From positions 1-40,428 of the forward strand of contig JASFGC010000002.1 in NCBI GenBank assembly GCA_050123975.1: a stretch of 40,428 nucleotides of DNA. Reading direction: 5' to 3'. The position numbers and the translations under genes were made by a program. Shown here piece by piece: positions 2,954-22,117 of the stretch. Each line of letters opens with the position of its first letter. The stretch's first letter is position 1. The stretch is from Syntrophobacterales bacterium. GTDB lineage: Bacteria > Desulfobacterota > Syntrophobacteria > BM002. Under the pieces are notes generated by a model. The model made no database searches. It saw nothing but the letters and a program-made list of their open reading frames with translations, and had not been told where the DNA came from.

Positions 2954-3409
2954 ATGAAAGAGTTTGAACCGAATGTTGTCGCATTCTGCTGTAATTACTG
3001 AGCTTACTCTGCAGCGGACCTGGCAGGTTCCATGCGGCTGGATTATCCACCGAACGTGAAGATCATCAAGGTTCCTTGCACCGGCAGGGTTGATGTCATC
3101 CATATTTTGAAAGCTCTGGAGGACGGGGCGGATGGCGTTATGGTTGCAGGGTGCTTGGAGGGAGACTGCCATTACCAAAGCGGCAACCTCCGGGCCAAAA
3201 AGCGGGTGGCCCATGTGCAACATATCCTTGACCAAATTGGATTTAGTGGTGAACGGGTCGCCATGTATAACCTCTCCGCCGGTATGGGGGTGAGGTTTGC
3301 CGAGATAGCCCGGGAGGTCACCGAAAAAGTTAGGGAATTGGGACCTAACCCCATCAGAAGCGCGCTAGAAGCTTCAAGAGAGTCCACTAAGGAGGCAGTA
3401 CATGGTTAA
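2954..3409 (+). CDS. mvhD: MvhD-type (methyl-viologen-reducing hydrogenase delta subunit-like) [2Fe-2S] protein with an in-frame TGA read as selenocysteine
   Basis: ATG at 2954 with RBS AGGAGGA at 2942-2948. The frame reads MKEFEPNVVAFCCNY-TGA(2999-3001)-AYSAADLAGS and continues into the listed ORF 3032-3409 (..PCTGRVD..AGCLEGDCHY..). Total length is 456 nt, or 152 codons. The TGA aligns with the second Cys of CNWC in the paralog at 17628. Confidence 0.8.
2999..3031 (+). promoter_or_regulatory. UGA(Sec) plus a candidate bacterial SECIS hairpin
   Basis: 14 nt after the UGA lies GGACC(3016-3020)-UGGCA loop(3021-3025)-GGUUCC(3026-3031, one bulged U). The loop starts 19 nt after the UGA and contains GG. 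Confidence 0.5.
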
Positions 3410-4070: not shown

Positions 4071-5005
4071 ATAAGACTACACCGAGCAAACTGGAAAAAA
4101 TCTTGGCAGAGGGACACTTGGCCGTTACTTCGGAATGCGGCCCGCCGCGAAACACTGATCTCGAAATAGTAGCGGAAAAGGCTGAGATGATTAAGGATCA
4201 CGTCGATGCCATAAATGTCACCGACAATCAGACATCAGTGGTACGGTTATGCAGCCTGGCCTCTTGCATTCGAATAAAACAGATGGGGTTGGAGCCGGTA
4301 TTGCAAATGGTAACCCGGGACCGCAACCGCATCGCCATTCAGAGTGACATCCTTGGTGCCTCCTCCTTTGGCATTAACAACATACTTTGTCTAACAGGAG
4401 ATCATCAGCAGTTCGGCGATCATCCCAATGCTGCCAATGTCTTTGATCTTGATTCCACTCAGTTGATCCAGACGGTCAAGTTGATGCGGGATGAGGGTAA
4501 GCTGCTGGGAGGCTTCGAAATGAAGAAGCGCCCTGAAATGTTCATTGGTGCAGCAGCCAACCCCTTTGCCGACCCCTACGAGATCAGGGTATCTCGTCTC
4601 GCCAAAAAGGTGGCCGCCGGTTGTCAGTTCATCCAGACCCAATGTATCTACAACATGGAGAAGTTTAAGCTCTGGATGGAGCAGCTGTGCGACCGGGGGC
4701 TGCATGAGAAGGTGGCCATTCTTGCCGGACTCACTCCCATGAAAAACGTGGGCATGGCCAAGTACATGAAAAATCGAGTTCCCGGCATTGATGTCCCGGA
4801 CGATATCATCGAGCGCCTGGCCGCTGTCCCCAAAGAAAAACAGGCAGACGAGGGTATCAAGATCTGCATTGAGCAAATCGAAGAATTAAAAGAAGTAGAA
4901 GGTATTAAGGGGTTTCATATCATGGCCATTGAATGGGAAGAAAAGGTTCCGGAGATAGTTGAGGCGGCAGGTCTTTATCCGAGACCCAAAGTGGATGGAA
5001 GCTAG
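4067..5005 (+). CDS. metF: Methylene-tetrahydrofolate reductase, MetF
   Basis: INVTDNQ, QMVTRDRNR, LCLTGDHQ and FIQTQCIYN are typical of anaerobe-type MetF. It is translationally coupled to metV. Confidence 0.85.
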   Translation: MNKTTPSKLEKILAEGHLAVTSECGPPRNTDLEIVAEKAEMIKDHVDAINVTDNQTSVVRLCSLASCIRIKQMGLEPVLQMVTRDRNRIAIQSDILGASSFGINNILCLTGDHQQFGDHPNAANVFDLDSTQLIQTVKLMRDEGKLLGGFEMKKRPEMFIGAAANPFADPYEIRVSRLAKKVAAGCQFIQTQCIYNMEKFKLWMEQLCDRGLHEKVAILAGLTPMKNVGMAKYMKNRVPGIDVPDDIIERLAAVPKEKQADEGIKICIEQIEELKEVEGIKGFHIMAIEWEEKVPEIVEAAGLYPRPKVDGS

Positions 5006-5163
5006 AACTAATAACGCACCCCACGGTGCAAAAATTATGAATCATACCAATTAAATAGACTTAATTTGTAGGTTGAAAAATATGAATAATTAAGTAGGAT
5101 AAGCTTAATTTCCTTTCACCTACTCTTTTCGTTTCCCTGAGGTGAGGAGAAGGAGGTAATCAG

Positions 5164-5547
5164 ATGTCAAAAAAGTACGTTCTGATCGTTGACGACGATC
5201 CAGATTTGGTGGAAACTGTCGCTATGATGCTGGAGAGCAAGGGTTACGAGGTAGGAAAGGCCTACGATGGTGTAGAGGGCGAGGAATCCATCAAGGAGCG
5301 CCGCCCCGACCTGCTGGTTCTGGACGTGATGATGCCCCGAAAAGATGGTTATAAGCTTTGTGCGGAATTGAAGGCTGACAGCAAAACCCAGGACATCCCC
5401 ATTATTTTACTTACAGCAGTGGGTGAGGCCGTTCCCACAACCAGCTACACCCATGCCCAGGGATTGTCCACCGAGGCTGAAGAGTACATCCCCAAACCGG
5501 TTGATACCAAGACCCTGGTGGAGGCGGTAGAGAGTTTTTTCTCTTAG
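5164..5547 (+). CDS. Single-domain CheY-like response regulator (receiver only)
   Basis: VLIVDDDPD, LLVLDVMMP (phospho-acceptor Asp) and YIPKP. Strong RBS GGAGAAGGAGG upstream. No output domain. Confidence 0.8.
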   Translation: MSKKYVLIVDDDPDLVETVAMMLESKGYEVGKAYDGVEGEESIKERRPDLLVLDVMMPRKDGYKLCAELKADSKTQDIPIILLTAVGEAVPTTSYTHAQGLSTEAEEYIPKPVDTKTLVEAVESFFS

Positions 5548-9115: not shown

Positions 9116-10414
9116 TTACTCCTCGTCTTCGTCTTCGTCCTTAGCTTTGAGTTCTTCCGGAATAATAAGAGCCTCCTCAAACATTTCTTTGAAAGAAAGC
9201 ACTTTGATGCCGAGGTCATACTCCTGGTTCAAGTCCCTCAGTTGATCGTAACAGTTGTGGCATGGGGTTATGCAAATGCTCGCTTCAGTAGCCCGAATTT
9301 GCTCTGCTTTCACTTTACCGGACCGCAGCCTTCTCTCCCTGAAAGGTCCGGCCATAGGGATGGCGCCTCCTCCACCGCCGCAGCAGAAGTTATATTCACC
9401 ATGGGGCTCCATCTCGACAAAATCCTCACAGAGGTATTTGATAACCTCCCGGGCATCCTTACCACAGCCACCGTTACGGCTGACATTGCAGGGATCCTGG
9501 TAGGTGCAACGCTCGTTAGCGAACACACTCTTATCCAGCTCGATCCTCCCCTGGCGGAGATACTCGGCAAAGAGGGTTACGCTGTGCACCACCTCAAACT
9601 TGTGGTCTCGTCCCAACCAAACAGGCGCTTCAAACTGAAGCGCACGCAGGGCGTGCCCTCATTCAGTTATGACAACGCGCTTCACCTCCAGCGCTTCAGC
9701 TGCGTCGCGAACCAATTGAGAGATATAGCCGGCAGCCTTGAGGTCGCCGGCAAACATGGCAAGGTTGGTGTCATCCCAACCCTTGCTGGACATGGTCCAA
9801 TCCTCCCCCGCCAGGTAAAAGACCATGGCAGCTTGGGAGATGTCCATGGGGTAGAACTTGGGCTCCCTGGCATTGACCGTATAAAGAACATTGGCTCCCT
9901 TCTTATCAATGGGAATAGTGGCACCCGGCAGTTCCTCCTGAAGCTCCTCCTCCATCCATTCAAGGGTGTCGATCCAGTCCTCCTCGCTCACCTCCATCTG
10001 ATTGCCATGTTTGTAATAACTCTCGATGGTTTTCACCAAGTTCTCGGGTACCTTGCCCTGAGAGACGCACAGACCCCGTCCGGTGCTGGTAATGGTGGCG
10101 ATATCGATACCAAAAGGACAGAACATGGTGCAGCGTCTACACATGGTGCAATCGCCATAGACAGTCCAGTAGAGGTCCTCGAGGAACTCCTCGTCTATCT
10201 TATCTTTCTTTTTGAAGGCCTCCAGGACTTTCTTGCCCTTTACAGCCGGGATCAGCTTTGGATCCTTATCATTGGCAAGGTAAAAGTGACAGGTGTCGGC
10301 ACAGAGGCCGCAATGGGCACAAATCTCCAACCACATTTTGAGCCGGGCATTGCTCTTTTCCTTTACCGACTTCTTGAAAGCTTCTGGGTTAAAGGCTGTT
10401 TCTTTGTCTCCCAT
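9116..10414 (-). CDS. HdrD/DsrK/TmcB-like iron-sulfur oxidoreductase (2x[4Fe-4S] plus CCG domain) with an in-frame TGA read as selenocysteine
   Basis: The listed ORFs 9659-10414 and 9116-9616 are in the same frame (1299 nt, 433 codons). The junction reads ..VKRVVITE-TGA(9659-9661)-GHALRALQFEAPVWLGRDHKFEVV.. Motifs include CAHCGLCADTC, CTMCRRCTMFCP, CTYQDPC, NFCCGGGGG and PCHNC. RBS AGGAGAG precedes the ATG at 10414. Confidence 0.8.
9625..9661 (-). promoter_or_regulatory. UGA(Sec) plus a candidate SECIS hairpin
   Basis: On the minus strand, UGA is followed after 15 nt by GCGCUUC (9643-9637), loop AGUUU (9636-9632), then GAAGCGC (9631-9625). This is a perfect 7-bp stem, and the loop starts 22 nt after the UGA. 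Confidence 0.55.
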
Positions 10415-13131: not shown

Positions 13132-13569
13132 TCAAGCGGCTTTGACTCCAGATTTTTTTCCCGAACCCACCGGGCTCGGGCCCAGTTCCTGAATACGGGT
13201 GGTAAATTCCCGAGCAAATTCGGCAAACCGGGGACCCTGGGCGGCACTGAGGTTATACATCTCCACCCGCTCGGGTTCGATGCCCATTTCCTCCAAAAGT
13301 TTTTTTACGTACTCCACCCTTTTTCTGGCCTTCAGGTTGCCGGTGAGATAGTGGCAGTCCCCTTCCAGACACCCGACCACGTAGGCTCCATCAGCTCCGT
13401 CCTCTATGGCCTTGAGCAGGTGCAGAATATCCACCCTGCCGGTGCAAGGCACGTTAATGATCCTGATATTGGTGGGATAGTTCAGTCGCATGGAACCTGC
13501 CAGGTCCGCCGCCGAGTAGCCTCAGTACATGCAACAAAACGTTACGATCTGCGGTTCAAATTCTGCCAT
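13132..13569 (-). CDS. mvhD: MvhD-type protein with an in-frame TGA read as selenocysteine (second copy)
   Basis: On the minus strand, the ATG at 13569 reads MAEFEPQIVTFCCMY-TGA(13524-13522)-GYSAADLAGS, continuing into the listed ORF that starts at 13491. Total 438 nt, or 146 codons. RBS AAGGTGGAAG. The Sec position is the same as in copy 1. Confidence 0.8.
13492..13524 (-). promoter_or_regulatory. UGA(Sec) plus a candidate SECIS hairpin
   Basis: The same GGACC-UGGCA-GGUUCC hairpin as copy 1, at 13507-13492. The 23-nt run GCGGACCTGGCAGGTTCCATGCG is identical in both copies. Confidence 0.5.
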
Positions 13570-16500: not shown

Positions 16501-16658
16501 TCCAGCTGGGGCATAAGTCCCCCGATACTGGGGGAAGCGTCCACCAGATGGACGTAAAACCCGGATTCGGCCAAATCAAGGGAGGCCTGAATGCCGGCAA
16601 TGCCCGCACCAACTACCATGACCGAACCAACTTTGGAATTTCCGCTCTTGGCTGCCAT
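13599..16658 (-). CDS. hdrA: Tandem HdrA-HdrA-like flavoprotein (1019 aa, no GltD module)
   Basis: There are two HdrA units, each with a Rossmann motif (VVGAGIAG and VVGGGVAGM) and QCVGSRD..YCS..CC. Also DKTFPTNDCSMC, CNCGINIGG, VVVASCSPRTHE and C-terminal CxxCxxC..CP / CxxCxxCxxxCP. RBS GAGAGGA. Confidence 0.85.
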   Translation of the reverse strand: MAAKSGNSKVGSVMVVGAGIAGIQASLDLAESGFYVHLVDASPSIGGLMPQLDKTFPTNDCSMCIVSPKLVDAGRHLNINIISNTELDSVEGEVGSFQAHLVNRPRFIDPEKCTGCGVCKQHCPVTAVNEFNEGLDRRTATYIKYPQAVPLAYAIDRETCIGCGLCEKLCLAKAIVYDEEERRSTLDVGAVILATGNEVFNPASFDTYAYAGHPNVVTSLEFERILSASGPYQGHLMRPWDREEPKSIAWLQCVGSRDIHHCDNSYCSAVCCMYAIKEAVIAKEHSHEPLDTAIFFMDMRTYGKDFEKYYERAKEEHGVRFIRSRVHTVDPVEEGSLKIVYTDEEGKSLEEEFDMVVLSSGFQPSKRTVELAERLGIELNEHNFAETSSFEPVKTSREGIFVCGAFRDPKDIPISVMEASAAAAAAAAPLVESRFALTKTKELPDERLVAGEEPRVGVFVCNCGINIGGYADVPAVRDYAKNLPHVVHVEDNLFTCSQDTQEKIREVIQEKDINRVVVASCSPRTHEPMFQETIREAGLNQYLFEMANIRDQDTWVHQNDPEGATEKAKDLVRGAVAKAALLDPLEQTVLGLNKAALVVGGGVAGMVAALTLADQGFPVHLVEKTGELGGNALKLRKTWKGEDIGSYVKDLVSRVGSHEHITVHTNTQLAANTGFVGNFDTILEKVDEPEQKTTVQHGVSIVATGGKELQPTEYLYGEDDRVLTALELDSRLKEDGNGFKDVNRTVFIQCVGSRDEERPYCSKICCTHSMESALQLKELNPDMDVYILYRDIRTYGFREDLYKEARGKGVLFIRYSLDTKPQVSNGSGSLKVQIHDPILGRDLVIPADALVLASAVLPNEAREVVSALKVNQNAEGFFLEAHMKLRPVDFGSDGLFLCGLAHYPKSIDEAIAQAQAAAARASTVLAKDVITLGAVKAVVEPDKCAVCLTCVRTCPFEVPYIGEDGYAVIDPAGCRGCGACVAECPGKAISLQHFTDKQLIAKTDALLLKEIGEAAAGKS

Positions 16659-16749
16659 CTCTTGTATCCTCTCGATACCTTAAGTTTTCTTTGAGCTGAA
16701 GATTGGCTTTTCAGTACTTCTCTATTCGACATCCCCGCTACAGAGGGCA

Positions 16750-16855
16750 AAACAAATTCTCAACTTCAGATGTGTGATATGAGGTTCGACATTTTCCTCG
16801 GATTTAGTATCCCACATCTCACATCTCACATCTCACATCCAGGTTAAATTTGTTT
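16750..16855. repeat. Intergenic repeat block bracketed by a 9-bp inverted repeat and containing a (CACATCT)x4 heptamer array
   Basis: AAACAAATT (16750-16758) is complementary to AATTTGTTT (16847-16855). The CACATCT array at 16813-16840 has last unit CACATCC. Upstream, AGATGTGTGATATGAGG (16768-16784) is partly complementary to the array. The word CGAAACAAATT is shared with the 8850-9050 block. Confidence 0.8.
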
Positions 16856-16869
16856 CGAAATTCTTTCTT

Positions 16870-17628
16870 TTATAGAAAGATCCCAGCAAACTTCGGGGTC
16901 CGTCCTTCGTAACCGTGCAGTTCCACCTGTCCCTGCCCCTCCAGAGCCGTGAGCAGATTGGAAACGTTCTGAATACCAATGTTCGTCCGGGAATCGATCT
17001 CCCTTACGGACAAAGGTCCATCCCGCAGGCTCAGGTAGATCAAGCTCTTCTCATACTCGCTCTTTATATTCTCATCCAGCAGCTTCAGATAAGCATCCGC
17101 TTTTAGCTTTTCGCCGTAGACGTTGCCTTTCTCCGTAAGCTGTCGCTGCATTCCCATGAGCCAACGCACAGTCTCGGTTTCCAGAGTCCTAAGCATGGCT
17201 TCCAGGTTGAACTTGTTGGCCTCGGCGTCAAAGGGGCCCATTGCTTTAATCTGATCAGTTGTTTCAGTAACCAGCTCGGCAAACAGCTGCCCTTCGGCAG
17301 CGGAAACCCAAGCTAACTGCAACCGCTCCCGACCGATGCCGGCAAGATCCAGCAGATTCTGAGTAGCAAAGATCTTCTTTTCCGCGTGGAGATTACCTTC
17401 CAGGTAATGACATTCTCCTGGGTGTCAGCCGAAAACCAACGAGGCATCGTAGCCGGACTGCAGCGCTTTGACGATGAAAACCGGATCAACCCGGCCGGAA
17501 CACATGGTGCGGATAACTCGAATGGTAGATGGGTACTGGAATCTGGACACTCCGGCCAAATCCGCTCCAGCATAGGCACACCAGTTGCACAAAAACGCCA
17601 ACATCTTGGGTTCGAAACCTTCGCTCAT
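16870..17628 (-). CDS. mvhD: MvhD domain with an in-frame TGA (Sec) fused to a ~115-aa C-terminal extension ending in a winged-helix-like segment
   Basis: On the minus strand the frame reads MSEGFEPKMLAFLCNWCAYAGADLAG..MCSGRVD..SLVFG-TGA(17427-17425)-HPGECHYLEGNLHAEKKIFATQNLLDLAGIGRERLQLAWVSAAEGQ.., joining the listed ORFs 17425-17628 and 16870-17322. Total 759 nt, or 253 codons. The TGA aligns with the Cys of GC(L/H)xGDCHY in the other copies. Confidence 0.8.
17388..17427 (-). promoter_or_regulatory. UGA(Sec) plus a candidate SECIS hairpin
   Basis: On the minus strand: UGA, 16 nt, AUUACC (17408-17403), loop UGGAA (17402-17398), GGUAAU (17397-17392). An outer GGAG (17418-17415) pairs with CUCC (17391-17388). 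The loop starts 22 nt after the UGA. Confidence 0.55.
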
Positions 17629-17662
17629 ATTCCATTCTCCTGCCGCCAGCTATATCATAAGG

Positions 17663-20600
17663 TTATTCCACCGCAGCAATCGCCGCCATCAGCTGGCCGT
17701 CTTTAAAATGGAGCATATCGATGGCCTTCTGCGGACAAGTGGAGGCACACACGCCACAGCCCTTGCACGAGGCCGGTATATTGACAGCTCGATACCCTTT
17801 GCCCTCCACCTCTTCCAGTTGAATTGCGCCAAAAACGCACACCGCCTCGCACAAGCCGCAACCGATACAGGCCTCCGCATCCACGGCAGAGACGATGGGC
17901 TCCACCATGACATATTTTTGGGAAAGTACGGTGACCGCCCGACCTGCTGCCGCTTGCGCCTGGGCTATGCTCTCTTCCAGTGGCTTGGGATAATGGGCCA
18001 GCCCGCAGACAAATACCCCGTCGGTGGGGAAATCAACCGGTCTGAGCTTCATGTGCGCTTCCAAGAAGAACTTGTCATCGGTTAAGGGCAATTTGAAAGA
18101 CTTGGCAATGCCCTCATGGTCTGTAGGATGGATTGCCGTGGCCAGGTTGATAAAATCGGGCTCAATGGTTATTGGCCAGCCCAGGATGTGATCCGTCACC
18201 GTTACCTTTAACCCCCCGTTTCCATCCACCTCCACCTTCGGCTTGTCGTCGAGGCTGTAGCGAATGAAGAGAACACCTTTGGCACGGGCTTGTTGGTAGA
18301 GGTCCTCCCTGGGGCCATAGGTGCGGAGATCCCGGTAGAGGACGAACACATCCATTTCCGGATTGATCTCTTTGAGCTGCAAAGCCGACTGTACCGAGTG
18401 GGTGCAGCAGATCTTGGAACAGTAAGGTCTTTCCGGCTCCCGAGAGCCAACACACTGAATGAAAACCGCTGCTTTGGCCGTTTTGACCATCTTCGGATCG
18501 GCCTCAATGGCCTCCCCCAGCTCGTGCCAACGAAACACCCGGTCACTCTTACCGTAGAGATATTCATCCGGCGCTATCGACTGGGCCCCGGTGGCGAGGA
18601 TGGCAACACCATGCTCGATCTGCCGCTCACCGGCACCATTAGCCACTGTGCTGACAAAGTTACCTACGAAGCCACTGACGTTCTTGAGCTCAGTTTCGGT
18701 GAGAACCTCGACATTGTCATGTCCTTCCACCTTGCTCACTAGGTCGGCCACAAAAGCGGACACATCTTCACCCTTCCAGGTACGTTTGATGTGCAGGGCA
18801 TTACCACCAAGCTGTTCCTTCTTTTCCACCAGGTAGCTCTTGAAGCCTTGCTCGGCCAGATTGAGGGCCGCGGACATGCCGGCCACCCCACCACCAATAA
18901 CGAGTGCTGCCGGGTTCAGATCCACCCGAATCTCCTGAATGGGCTCAAGCAAGGAGGCCCTGGCAACGGCCATCCGTACCAAGTCCTTGGCCTTTTCCGT
19001 GGCCTTTTCGGGCTCGCTTTGGTGCACCCAGGAGTCCTGGTCGCGGATGTTGGCCATCTCAAAGAGGAATCTGTTCAGGCCAGCTTCCCTGATTGTTTCT
19101 TGAAACAAAGGCTCGTGAGTTCTAGGGGTACAGGCGGCCACCACTACTCGGTTCAAGTTGTTTTCTAGGATGGCCTCCTTCATGATCTCCTGGGTATCCT
19201 GGGAGCAGGTGAACAGGTTCTCTGCCACATAGGCTACGTTGGGCAGGGTTTCCGCAAAGGCGCGCACCGCCGGAACATCTACGATGCCGCCAATATTCAC
19301 TCCGCAATTGCAGACAAACACACCGATGCGGGGATCCTTCAGGTCAATGGAAGTCTCTTCCATAAAGGTCTTTTCTTTGACCTGTGAGCCTCGCACATCC
19401 GCCAGAAGGGATTGGGACGCCGCTGCCGCCGCGCTGGCCTCCATCACCGAGTAGGGAATATCCTTGGGACCGCTGAAAGCGCCACAGACAAAAATCCCCG
19501 GTTTGGAGGTGGCCACTGGCGCAAAAGAGCTGGCAGTAACAAACTGGTCTTCGTCCAGTTCAATGCCGAGTTTCTCAGCCAGATCGACCGTTGCAGCCGA
19601 GGTCTCCATACCCACGGAAAGCACAACCATGTCGAAAGTCTCTTTTTCGATCTTACCGTCCTCGGTGGTGTAGGTGATCTCCAGGTCACCGCTGTCGCCC
19701 ACCGGGTCGACGCTGTGCACTCGCGAGCGGACAAAACGCACTCCGATCTCGTCCTCGGCTCGCATGTAGTACTTGTCAAATTCCTTGCCATAGGTTCGCA
19801 TATCCATAAAAAAGATGGCGGTATCCAAAGGTTGCTTGCTATGCTCTTTGGCAATTACCGCCTCCTTGATGGCGTACATGCAGCAGACGCCAGAACAGTA
19901 GCCGTGATCGCACTGATTGATGTCACGGGAGCCCACACATTGTAGCCAGGCGATTTTCTTGGGTTCTTTGGCATCCGAAGGCCGAATGAGATGACCTTCG
20001 TAAGGGCCGGATGCACTGAGGATACGTTCAAATTCCATACTGGTAACCACATTGGGATATCTGGCGTAATTGTAGGTGTGGTATTGACTGGGGTTGAAGG
20101 CTTGAAAGCCGGGCGCGGCTATGATTGAGCCGACATCGAGGGTGACTGTGGTTTCCAGCATACTGTGATCCACGGCTTCCGCCTTGCAGGCGGTCACGCA
20201 TTCAAGGCATTCGCAACAGGACATGCAGTTGAGACATTTCTCCGCCTCGGCTCTGGCCTGTTCTTCGGTGAGCCCAAGCTCCACTTCGGCAAAATTTGTC
20301 CGCCTCTCGTCACTGGCCAGTGTGGGCATTTCAGCCCGAGCGCTCATCTCCAGATCTTCGGGTATTGCCACGAAGTTCTCCTGAGGGAACTCCACGGGTT
20401 CCCGACCTGCCCTCAGGTCTGCACCCCGCAGGTAGCGTGAAATAGAAATGGCTGCTTCCCTCCCATGCGCTACCGCACCAATAGCCACCCAGGGCCCGGT
20501 GTGGGCATCGCCACCAGCAAACACTCCCTCCACAGTGGTGGCAAAGGTCACAGGATCGGCGTCAATGGTACCCCAGCGGCTGAGCGCCAGCCCTGAATCG

Positions 20601-22117
20601 TCAGTGAGGAAAGCGGAATCTGGAGTTTGTCCGATGGCCGGGAGCACCCAATCGGTGTCCACGATAAATTCACTGCCGGGGACTGGTACCGGGCGACGCC
20701 TCCCGGAAGAATCCGGCTCACCCAGCTCCATTTTGATACACTGAATCCCTACTACCTTGTTGTCTTTGGTGAGAATTTGTTGGGGTGCGGTGAGGTACTG
20801 AATCTCGATGCCCTCGGCCAGAGCATCTTCAATCTCGTGTTCGTAAGCAGGCATTTCAGTCCGGGTGCGGCGATAGAGAATACTGACCTTCTCCGCCCCC
20901 AAGCGCAGAGCAGAGCGGGCCGCATCAATGGCCACATTGCCGCCGCCTACGATAACCGTTCTTCCCTCAAGTTTGCTCAACTCACCCTGATTGACTCGGC
21001 GGAGAAAATCAACACTGGAAACAACTCCCTCTCCATCTTCGCCAGGAATGTTAATCTGCAGGTCTTTGTGGGCACCGATTGCAAGATAAATCGCCTTGTA
21101 GCCCTCTTTGAAAAGACCGTCAAAGGTCACATCCCGACCCAAAGCAGTATTGAGCTTAATCTCCACACCCAAGCGGGTTATGGCCCGAATCTCTTTGTCC
21201 AAAACCTCAGGGGGCAAGCGATAGTCGGGAATACCTAACCGCAACATGCCGCCGGCTACTGACTGAGACTCAAATACCGTGGACTCATAGCCCTCCAGGG
21301 CAAGAAAATGGGCGGCAGTGAGACCCGCCGGACCGGAGCCGATGATGGCTACCTTTTCCTCCCGCTTTTCAATCTCGGGCACAGGAATATCTTCAATATC
21401 CACCTGATCAGCCACAAACCGCTTCAAGGCGCAAATGGAAATGGGCTCATCCACCTCACCCCGCCTGCAGGCCGTCTCACAGGGATGGGGACAGATGCGG
21501 CCGATGGTGCCTGGAAAGGGCAGGGTCCGGAGGATGACCTCCATGGCTTCCCGGTATTTGCCCTCGGCAATAAGAGCCACGTAGGCATGGGCGTTGACAT
21601 GGTTGGGACAGGCATTGGTGCAAGGAGAACGATCGAGCTTGTCGATTATGTAGCCACCGGGAATCGCCTGGGCGTAAGGTTTGTAGGTGGCTTTTCGGGC
21701 GCCAAGGGCGAGATCAAACTCGCTGGGTAAAGTCACGGGGCAGACCTCGGCACAATCCCCGCAGCCGGTGCACTTGTCCAGATCGATGTAACGGGGATTC
21801 TGCCGAATCGTTACCTGAAAACTACCCTGTTCCCCAGCCACGCCTTCTACTTCGGCGCAGGTAAGCAGGTTTATGTTGGGATGGCGACCACACTCCACCA
21901 ACTTGGGGGACAAAATACACATGGAGCAATCATTGGTGGGAAAGGTCTTGTCCAACTGCGCCATAACTCCGCCAATGGCCGGTGAACTTTCAACCACATG
22001 AACGTAGTAACCGGAATCTGCCAAATCCAAGGCTGCCTGAACACCGGCAATTCCGCCACCCACCACCATAACCGAGCCAACCAGTTCGCTGCTCGACCGG
22101 GCCTTTTCAGCGCACAT
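17663..22117 (-). CDS. hdrA: Large HdrA-like fusion protein (HdrL-type): HdrA N-terminal domain, inserted GltD/NfnB-like NAD(P)H oxidoreductase module, then tandem HdrA units (1484 aa)
   Basis: The N-terminus VMVVGGGIAG..DKTFPTNDCSMC is HdrA-like. Aa ~160-570 (CPHPCETACRRG, VAIIGSGPAGLTAA, GGMLRLGIPDYRLP, VIVGGGNVAIDAAR, GVFAGGDA) resemble the glutamate synthase small subunit. The rest carries two HdrA QCVGSR..CC units. RBS AGGAGTG. Confidence 0.85.
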   Translation of the reverse strand: MCAEKARSSSELVGSVMVVGGGIAGVQAALDLADSGYYVHVVESSPAIGGVMAQLDKTFPTNDCSMCILSPKLVECGRHPNINLLTCAEVEGVAGEQGSFQVTIRQNPRYIDLDKCTGCGDCAEVCPVTLPSEFDLALGARKATYKPYAQAIPGGYIIDKLDRSPCTNACPNHVNAHAYVALIAEGKYREAMEVILRTLPFPGTIGRICPHPCETACRRGEVDEPISICALKRFVADQVDIEDIPVPEIEKREEKVAIIGSGPAGLTAAHFLALEGYESTVFESQSVAGGMLRLGIPDYRLPPEVLDKEIRAITRLGVEIKLNTALGRDVTFDGLFKEGYKAIYLAIGAHKDLQINIPGEDGEGVVSSVDFLRRVNQGELSKLEGRTVIVGGGNVAIDAARSALRLGAEKVSILYRRTRTEMPAYEHEIEDALAEGIEIQYLTAPQQILTKDNKVVGIQCIKMELGEPDSSGRRRPVPVPGSEFIVDTDWVLPAIGQTPDSAFLTDDSGLALSRWGTIDADPVTFATTVEGVFAGGDAHTGPWVAIGAVAHGREAAISISRYLRGADLRAGREPVEFPQENFVAIPEDLEMSARAEMPTLASDERRTNFAEVELGLTEEQARAEAEKCLNCMSCCECLECVTACKAEAVDHSMLETTVTLDVGSIIAAPGFQAFNPSQYHTYNYARYPNVVTSMEFERILSASGPYEGHLIRPSDAKEPKKIAWLQCVGSRDINQCDHGYCSGVCCMYAIKEAVIAKEHSKQPLDTAIFFMDMRTYGKEFDKYYMRAEDEIGVRFVRSRVHSVDPVGDSGDLEITYTTEDGKIEKETFDMVVLSVGMETSAATVDLAEKLGIELDEDQFVTASSFAPVATSKPGIFVCGAFSGPKDIPYSVMEASAAAAASQSLLADVRGSQVKEKTFMEETSIDLKDPRIGVFVCNCGVNIGGIVDVPAVRAFAETLPNVAYVAENLFTCSQDTQEIMKEAILENNLNRVVVAACTPRTHEPLFQETIREAGLNRFLFEMANIRDQDSWVHQSEPEKATEKAKDLVRMAVARASLLEPIQEIRVDLNPAALVIGGGVAGMSAALNLAEQGFKSYLVEKKEQLGGNALHIKRTWKGEDVSAFVADLVSKVEGHDNVEVLTETELKNVSGFVGNFVSTVANGAGERQIEHGVAILATGAQSIAPDEYLYGKSDRVFRWHELGEAIEADPKMVKTAKAAVFIQCVGSREPERPYCSKICCTHSVQSALQLKEINPEMDVFVLYRDLRTYGPREDLYQQARAKGVLFIRYSLDDKPKVEVDGNGGLKVTVTDHILGWPITIEPDFINLATAIHPTDHEGIAKSFKLPLTDDKFFLEAHMKLRPVDFPTDGVFVCGLAHYPKPLEESIAQAQAAAGRAVTVLSQKYVMVEPIVSAVDAEACIGCGLCEAVCVFGAIQLEEVEGKGYRAVNIPASCKGCGVCASTCPQKAIDMLHFKDGQLMAAIAAVE

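Follow-up and report, generated by a model that had tools for sequence, protein, structure and literature searches.

Classical MvhD/VhuD proteins are iron-sulfur subunits of about 140 amino acids (aa) that, in methanogens, link hydrogenase or formate dehydrogenase to the heterodisulfide reductase-type subunit HdrA (structures 5ODC, 7BKB and 9SW2). In archaea of the Methanococcales, VhuD has two selenocysteine (Sec, U) sites situated 50 codons apart (PMC4989117), and MvhD/VhuD appears in a recent review among the selenoproteins of the CxxU type, with two Sec residues (PMC13188914). A much longer homologue, BamF, was seen by cryo-electron microscopy (cryo-EM) in the class II benzoyl-CoA reductase (BCRII) BamBCDEFGHI of Geobacter metallireducens, and exceeds the classical proteins by more than 100 aa; its winged helix-turn-helix (wHTH) domain 'interfaces with BamI', it links the input module BamGHI to BamE, a fused HdrA dimer, and it carries a Sec, Sec19, next to the cluster (bioRxiv 10.64898/2026.04.10.717634). 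This cryo-EM study was the sole paper on long MvhD proteins that we found in the open literature. Here we describe a long mvhD gene carried by a 40,428 nucleotide (nt) stretch of DNA, hereafter the window, from a Syntrophobacterales bacterium (positions 1 to 40,428 of contig JASFGC010000002.1, assembly GCA_050123975.1), which encodes a selenoprotein of the same general design in a different genetic setting.

Gene neighborhoods resembling that of the window are also known. In Desulfobacterium autotrophicum HRM2, the protein HdrL is a fusion of HdrA and glutamate synthase, an mvhD gene comes after every hdrA or hdrL gene, there is one tandem hdrL/hdrA locus and four of the MvhD proteins are selenoproteins (PMC2702500); that paper is silent on an MvhD tail and on which Cys is replaced, and considered HdrL to be unique to that organism. 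Fused-dimer HdrAs, and HdrAs with an inserted GltD/NfnB-like module, have been described for anaerobic methanotrophic archaea (ANME) and other archaea (PMC9012536, PMC12054007). Additionally, the methylene-tetrahydrofolate (THF) reductase HdrABC-MvhD-MetFV of Moorella thermoacetica, which acts in the Wood-Ljungdahl pathway's methyl branch, has a fused-dimer HdrA, MvhD and MetV/MetF encoded together (PMC9012536, PMC5736913).

The long mvhD gene of the window (its product is referred to as P0001) and its constituent parts are the following:

16870..17628, minus strand: long MvhD gene, from ATG to TAA, giving 252 aa when TGA is translated as U
17636..17641, minus strand: Shine-Dalgarno-like AGGAGA, read directly from the sequence, 7 nt 5′ of the ATG at 17628
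17236..17601, minus strand: MvhD/FlpD [2Fe-2S] domain, residues 10–131 (Pfam PF02662, E 3e-48)
17425..17427, minus strand: predicted UGA selenocysteine codon, residue 68, in G-U-H-x-G-E-C-H-Y (from the Cys-column alignment, the shared TGA and the Sec machinery)
17392..17408, minus strand: apical hairpin of the selenocysteine insertion sequence (SECIS), AUUACC-UGGAA-GGUAAU, whose stem begins 16 nt after the UGA, over codons H74-Y75-L76-E77-G78-N79
16873..17226, minus strand: C-terminal extension, residues 135–252 (118 aa), helical linker plus winged helix (AlphaFold2 model and conservation)
16879..17043, minus strand: winged helix-turn-helix, residues ~196–250, with helices H1, H2 (208–215) and H3 (219–231) and a beta-hairpin wing (235–249)

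This region encodes one selenoprotein, a long MvhD composed of a FlpD/MvhD domain (residues 10–131), a helical linker and a winged helix at the C-terminus. Translation with TGA as U showed a single in-frame TGA, at codon 68 (17427–17425), within the peptide VFG-U-HPGECHY (spanning stretch VFG-U-HPGECHYLEGNLHAEK). A first-pass annotation of the window, made by a model from the sequence alone, had proposed that reading through this TGA joins two open reading frames (ORFs) into one protein. This is indeed the case, because the product of 252 residues plus a stop aligns with contiguous orthologues that have Cys in place of Sec, such as P0112 of Desulfobacca acetoxidans; in a search for homologues in protein databases, P0001 could be aligned end to end with more than 6000 proteins of ~252 aa that have Cys at column 68. 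The same annotation had named a separate downstream gene as the case that would speak against a single protein, which is excluded because the TTG at 17322, where such a gene would start, lies inside the FlpD domain and because the Cys orthologues are contiguous.

The N-terminal part of the protein is a standard MvhD. Pfam PF02662 scored 163.3 bits, against a gathering cut-off of 22.3, and positions 2–123 of the 123 in the profile were covered. Residues 1–134 matched the MvhD/VhuD chains 7bkb_F, 9sw2_D and 5odc_D in a sequence search of the PDB (E 1e-40 to 1e-43), and the N-terminal half of the structural model matched 5odc_D with Foldseek against the PDB (E 1.8e-13). The FlpD domain is 45–49% identical to methanogen VhuD/MvhD, with the same fold and five conserved Cys positions in common, although in the long-MvhD family a Leu replaces the first Cys of the CC-x-x-C motif of the classical proteins. 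Among the cysteines of the cluster region, C14, C17, C43 and C73 are kept, with U at position 68. As first proposed, CNWC is unaltered, and the TGA occupies the column of the invariant Cys in G-C-H-x-G-D/E-C-H-Y, a residue that is Cys (GCLEGDCHY) in the two short MvhD copies of the window. In an alignment of 108 homologues, column 68 was Cys in more than 90%. Since columns 17 and 68 hold the only conserved Cys pair with a spacing of 50 codons, they correspond to the two Sec sites of VhuD, and both MvhD Sec sites are thus already known from that archaeal protein. We found no explicit statement in open papers of which MvhD cysteines ligate the [2Fe-2S] cluster. Nevertheless, Sec68 is probably a ligand, given that C14, C43 and position 68 stand at the ends of three parallel strands in the AlphaFold2 model and that the BCRII paper treats the residue at column 17 (Sec19) as a non-ligand near the cluster.

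The source genome (3.64 Mb in 441 contigs) contains the machinery for Sec insertion, with SelB (396 bits), SelA (630 bits), SelD (375 bits) and a tRNA-SeC with anticodon tca. The selD gene itself (contig C169, positions 4244–5167, minus strand) has one in-frame TGA and codes for a Sec-containing selenophosphate synthetase. The state of codon 68 was examined in a species-level survey in which one genome per species was scanned, yielding 80 loci with a full-length relative plus one further locus, that is, 81 with column 68. This column was TGA in 26 of them and Cys in 55, and all of the TGA loci were from Desulfobacterota-type (deltaproteobacterial) metagenome-assembled genomes (MAGs) or from broadly labelled MAGs. 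A locus from a Cloacimonadota MAG (L083, 6001–6747) was the sole surveyed long MvhD with TGA at column 17 (CxxU) instead of column 68. In a metagenome relative (L003, positions 1–200), the sequence compared with 17430–17470 of the window is strongly diverged 5′ of the TGA and near-identical 3′ of it, so it may be recombinant or a chimeric assembly between paralogues.

The candidate SECIS was compared between 28 Sec forms (from the window, from three metagenome relatives and from 24 of the 26 TGA loci, namely those with a mappable codon position) and 56 Cys forms. All 28 Sec forms have CAT TAC (CTG/CAG) (GAN) GGT AAT exactly at H74-Y75-x-x-G78-N79, with six of six base pairs, whereas AUUACC-N5-GGUAAU with all six pairs is possible in only 3 of the 56 Cys forms. 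The proteins of the Sec set are only ~50–60% identical, yet their hairpin codons are fixed, and neighboring synonymous sites are free (H69 is CAC in 18 and CAT in 10, G71 uses four codons, and C73 is TGC in 17 and TGT in 11). In the Cys forms the hairpin codons do vary: CAT 38 and CAC 18, TAT 28 and TAC 28, GGT in only 9 of 56, and AAT 34 and AAC 22. Fixed codons in the Sec forms, in contrast to variable ones in the Cys forms, indicate selection on the RNA and not on the protein, so that the inner hairpin at 17408–17392 put forward by the first-pass annotation is real. The outer GGAG/CUCC pairing that accompanied it (17418–17415 with 17391–17388) did not withstand the comparison, as it is broken in a relative with 87% identity and absent in most loci, and is lineage-specific. 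An Rfam scan of 16600–17700 returned no SECIS family, only chance matches to a long intergenic hairpin. From these comparisons we predict that UGA-68 is decoded as selenocysteine and that selenium is incorporated in the protein: SelB and tRNA-Sec would decode the codon, directed by a coding-region hairpin located within the conserved CHYLEGN, 16 nt downstream. Archaeal SECIS elements, in contrast, reside in the 3′ untranslated region.

The genome contains nine MvhD paralogues, four with Sec at G-U-H and three with Sec at CxxU (on contigs that include C110, C46, C74, C283, C6 and C33). Two short CxxU copies lie in the window:

2963–3409, plus strand: short MvhD paralogue, Sec in CC-x-x-U, with GCLEGDCHY
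13132–13569, minus strand: short MvhD paralogue, Sec in CC-x-x-U, with GCLEGDCHY

The CC motif is present in all three CxxU paralogues, and LC takes its place in three of the four G-U-H ones. The three other G-U-H paralogues (C110, C46 and C74) have the same hairpin as P0001, and the two CxxU copies of the window have near-identical hairpins, GGACC-UGGCA-GGUUCC, that share the core ACCUGGNAGGU with the hairpin of the long MvhD; a core common to both Sec types is expected if a single SelB serves them. The first-pass claim that two different cysteines were recoded in paralogues therefore stands (CxxU versus G-U-H), but not as something unusual, because it is an old, family-wide feature that also occurs in archaeal VhuD. 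A second long MvhD of the same genome, P0264 (263 aa; L086, contig C283, 612–1400, minus strand), has its Sec at residue 19, in CCTWU, and reaches the Pfam threshold for HTH_IclR. Along its full length, including the tail, it shares 34% identity with P0001, and its family on L090 is followed by a GltD/NfnB-like gene and not by bam genes. Upstream of P0264 there are HdrA-like ORFs, each with a TGA.

The C-terminal extension was examined with an AlphaFold2 monomer model built from the 108-sequence alignment (mean predicted local distance difference test, pLDDT, 90.6; predicted template modeling score, pTM, 0.88), in which pLDDT exceeded 90 across the extension. The model predicts helices at 139–150, 152–159, 161–167, 177–203 (long), 208–215 and 219–231, followed by a beta-hairpin at 235–249. 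With Foldseek against the PDB, the C-terminus matched the ArsR/MarR-type winged helices of NolR (4omz), HlyU, MarR and CzrA, with root-mean-square deviations of 1.3–2.0 Å over 57–64 residues. The initial suspicion of an extension of about 115 aa ending in a winged helix is thus borne out by the model and these matches, its actual length being 118 aa. A PDB sequence search with the tail gave nothing significant (best E 0.3), and the Pfam HTH matches of the tail alone, to TrmB, MarR_2 and IclR, were all sub-threshold (the best was TrmB, with 18.6 bits against a cut-off of 25.6), although some homologues, as well as P0264, do reach the HTH_IclR threshold. The linker contains the conserved motifs RWLxGM and NVY, and residues R155, W156, G159, N169, V170, Y171, E191 and Y192 are invariant or near-invariant; further conserved positions of the tail are L157, M160, G204-P, S223, L226, E230, G233, G242, P245 and F247. 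Over the 108 sequences, the net charge was about zero for the wHTH, for its recognition helix H3 and for the wing.

The first-pass annotation did not associate such a tail with MvhD; however, the extension belongs, as a conserved element, to a very large subfamily of MvhD proteins and has a precedent in BamF. The more than 6000 homologues of ~252 aa with the extension are from Desulfobacterota, Chloroflexota, Bathyarchaeia, Asgard archaea and Thermoplasmata. The 80 species-level loci comprise, among bacteria, Syntrophobacterales, Desulfobacterales, Desulfobaccales, Chloroflexota and Clostridia and, among archaea, Bathyarchaeia, Promethearchaeota and other Asgard, Thermoplasmata and Methanomassiliicoccales, and ANME-1; the closest relatives, with 85–86% identity, are Syntrophobacterales MAGs. 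A phmmer search with only the tail, against 1.84 billion cluster representatives, identified 142 clusters. All fusions examined with Pfam have the tail on the C-terminal side of FlpD, and in all matches of ~250 aa it lies close to the C-terminus; the fusions include HdrA-FlpD-tail and ferredoxin-FlpD-tail arrangements (P0195, P0230, P0245, P0190 and P0194). The existence of a stand-alone tail protein was rejected, since the matches of 110–170 aa start where post-TGA fragments would start and all the Pfam-tested fusions are FlpD-first. The gene described here is therefore ordinary for its family: it is one Sec-bearing representative of the adaptor subfamily of long, BamF-like MvhDs.

Many of these genes are misannotated. 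Gene callers split the TGA-form orthologues into a 67-aa MvhD stub and a fragment of 150–170 aa, and databases contain fragments of 150 aa (one of 166 aa) that are 87–99% identical to the C-terminal part of P0001. On their own contigs, these 150- and 166-aa fragments are preceded by a FlpD stub of 67–75 aa, which identifies them as parts of this gene, divided at the identical TGA. One of the 150-aa post-TGA fragments, P0106 from the Joint Genome Institute (JGI), is annotated as 'DNA-binding transcriptional ArsR family regulator', which is an artefact of gene splitting at a missed Sec codon. The pattern TGA-N18-CATTACC-N5-GGTAAT provides a simple diagnostic for mending the split calls.

On the minus strand of the window, the order of genes is fhs, folD, hdrL, long mvhD, hdrA, short Sec-mvhD, metV, metF, a membrane protein gene and a gene for an HdrD-like Sec protein. 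The two genes flanking the long mvhD, identified with Pfam and NCBIfam, code for its potential partners:

17663..22117, minus strand: upstream partner, an HdrL-type fused HdrA dimer with an inserted GltD/NfnB-like NAD(P)H module, 1484 aa
13599..16658, minus strand: downstream partner, a second fused-dimer HdrA, 1019 aa, followed by the short Sec-MvhD, MetV and MetF

This arrangement is widely conserved. Among the 72 loci with sufficient flanking sequence, 71 have an HdrA-type gene ending immediately upstream of the long MvhD; on the downstream side, an HdrA-type gene begins immediately after it in 64 of 67. Within 6 kb of the long MvhD, MetF occurs in 17 loci, MetV in 16 and a GltD-like module in 16. 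Additionally, a Thermoplasmatales MAG (L082, 6001–9096, plus strand) encodes a natural fusion of 1031 aa between a long MvhD (FlpD, linker and initial part of the wHTH) and a GltD/NfnB-like NAD(P)H module. Compared with Moorella, the window has two HdrA dimers, one with the GltD insert, and a pair of MvhDs, of which one is long; in place of separate HdrBC there is an HdrD-like Sec protein. BamF resembles P0001 in that it has an extension of more than 100 aa ending in a wHTH, follows a fused-dimer HdrA (BamE) and is a selenoprotein, BamF being compared here by its published description. Its Sec, however, is at CxxU (Sec19), as in P0264, and not at G-U-H (residue 68), and BamF belongs to a bam cluster whereas P0001 belongs to a Wood-Ljungdahl cluster, fhs-folD-hdrL-mvhD-hdrA-mvhD-metVF, without BamB/C or BamGHI genes. 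Homologue searches with P0001 or P0264 retrieved no match named BamF or assigned to Geobacter, and the matches of P0264 were almost all truncated N-terminally at the TGA.

We consider it likely that P0001 is a long Sec-MvhD whose tail serves as a docking adaptor within an HdrL/HdrA/MetFV complex, and that it does not bind DNA. The FlpD domain would bind the HdrA dimer encoded upstream (HdrL), with its [2Fe-2S] cluster passing single electrons to or from HdrA, and Sec would substitute for the Cys that comes first in G-C-H-x-G-D-C-H-Y, where archaeal VhuD has its second Sec. The tail would be a protein-docking arm, made up of the helical linker and ending in a near-neutral winged helix, and the wHTH may hold a second redox module, either the downstream 1019-aa HdrA dimer or the GltD/NfnB-like module of HdrL. 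The resulting HdrL-MvhD-HdrA-MvhD-MetVF assembly could couple NAD(P)H and a low-potential carrier to the Wood-Ljungdahl chemistry of methylene-THF; judging from gene content, it is likely a bifurcating or confurcating complex that is linked to NAD(P)H and ferredoxin and coupled to MetFV. The role as a docking arm is suggested by the precedent of BamF, whose wHTH contacts BamI of the input module, by the near-neutral surface of the wHTH, by the position of the tail strictly after FlpD, by the fusion in L082 and by the presence of a further redox module always encoded directly downstream, which is mostly an HdrA dimer, a GltD/NfnB-like protein on L090 and BamGHI in BCRII.

The fold of the tail could also be taken to mean that the winged helix is a true DNA-binding domain, and that the long MvhD moonlights as a redox-sensing regulator of its own hdr/metF operon. 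This would agree with the similarity to the DNA-binding domains of ArsR, MarR and HlyU, with the weak Pfam HTH matches, with the conservation of several basic residues in H2, H3 and the wing and with the JGI label of the 150-aa fragment. We nevertheless regard DNA binding as very unlikely, because the net charge of the wHTH, the recognition helix and the wing is close to zero, the domain comes after FlpD in every Pfam-tested fusion and the gene is found in HdrA operons across two domains of life, the pTM of 0.88 speaks for a domain fixed in place against the MvhD core, the wHTH of BamF binds a protein, and the ArsR label is produced by the TGA split. Somewhat less improbable, but still unlikely, is that the tail only clamps or stabilizes MvhD on its own upstream HdrA dimer, offsetting the altered architecture of the fused dimer, with no second module involved. 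A rigid unit, as suggested by the high pTM, would suit such a clamp, as would the existence of HdrA-FlpD-extension fusions (P0195) and the invariable placement of the long MvhD after a fused-dimer, type II-like HdrA; however, short MvhDs also follow fused-dimer HdrAs, for instance that at 13132–13569 after the 1019-aa HdrA, the wHTH of BamF reaches a different module, BamI, and the L082 fusion connects the tail, in the manner of a Rosetta stone, to a GltD/NfnB-like module.

That the TGA is a true stop, leaving either two genes (a 67-aa MvhD stub and a 150-aa wHTH protein from TTG 17322) or a decaying pseudogene, is extremely improbable. Gene callers do produce exactly these two pieces in relatives and the 150-aa fragments are present in databases, but the split would cut the FlpD domain (10–131) at residues 68 and 103, TGA and hairpin are kept in 26 species-level genomes whose proteins are only 50–60% identical, the Cys orthologues are single ORFs and the genome has the full Sec machinery. 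The readings as a stop codon, as two genes or as a pseudogene are thus refuted by the comparative data.

Other observations weigh against the interpretation of P0001 as a Sec-containing docking adaptor. In terms of folding energy, the SECIS region did not surpass shuffled sequences (z = 0.56), so the support for the SECIS is comparative and not thermodynamic, and the stem is invariant and hence offers no compensatory covariation. R209, R225, R/K231 and K246 are conserved basic residues of the wHTH. The homology of the tails of P0001 and BamF would rest on the description in the paper and on the Sec19 paralogue, and that paper mentions 'two Rossmann-fold domains', whereas the linker of P0001 is predicted to be all-helical. 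A GltD-like module is nearby in only 16 of the 80 loci, and at least two candidates compete as docking partner, the choice between them being a guess.

We hold only tentatively, and as rather doubtful, a more general scheme in which the long MvhD is the defining tether of a supercomplex across both prokaryotic domains. In it, the wHTH would unite two flavin-based bifurcating modules, a fused HdrA dimer on one side and either another HdrA dimer or a GltD/NfnB-like NAD(P)H module on the other, in a tandem-bifurcating assembly serving the methyl branch of Wood-Ljungdahl metabolism in lineages from Asgard archaea and Bathyarchaeia to Desulfobacterota, and in the Desulfobacterota orthologues the selenolate of Sec68 would directly ligate the [2Fe-2S] cluster and tune its potential.

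This analysis adds to what was known the breadth of the family, the HdrA-long MvhD-HdrA triad and the diagnostic for a large number of split gene calls. The tail, so far described only for BamF, marks a widespread HdrA-MvhD(long)-HdrA triad in anaerobes of both domains, often beside MetFV, making the assembly of multi-module Hdr-type bifurcating complexes testable in sulfate reducers, syntrophs, Bathyarchaeia and Asgard archaea. Likewise, the pattern of Sec among the paralogues, with CxxU in three and G-U-H in four, offers a natural comparison of the effect of selenium at each site.

Two further features of the region are worth recording. The 211-bp spacer between the long mvhD and hdrA (16659–16869) contains (GATGTGA)x4 on the minus strand, inside a long imperfect hairpin (16752–16853) that has a chance match to a microRNA model in Rfam. 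Downstream in the gene cluster, two ORFs joined by one in-frame TGA (9116–10414, minus strand) give a 432-aa HdrD-like protein with Fer4_8 and CCG domains, which is probably another selenoprotein.

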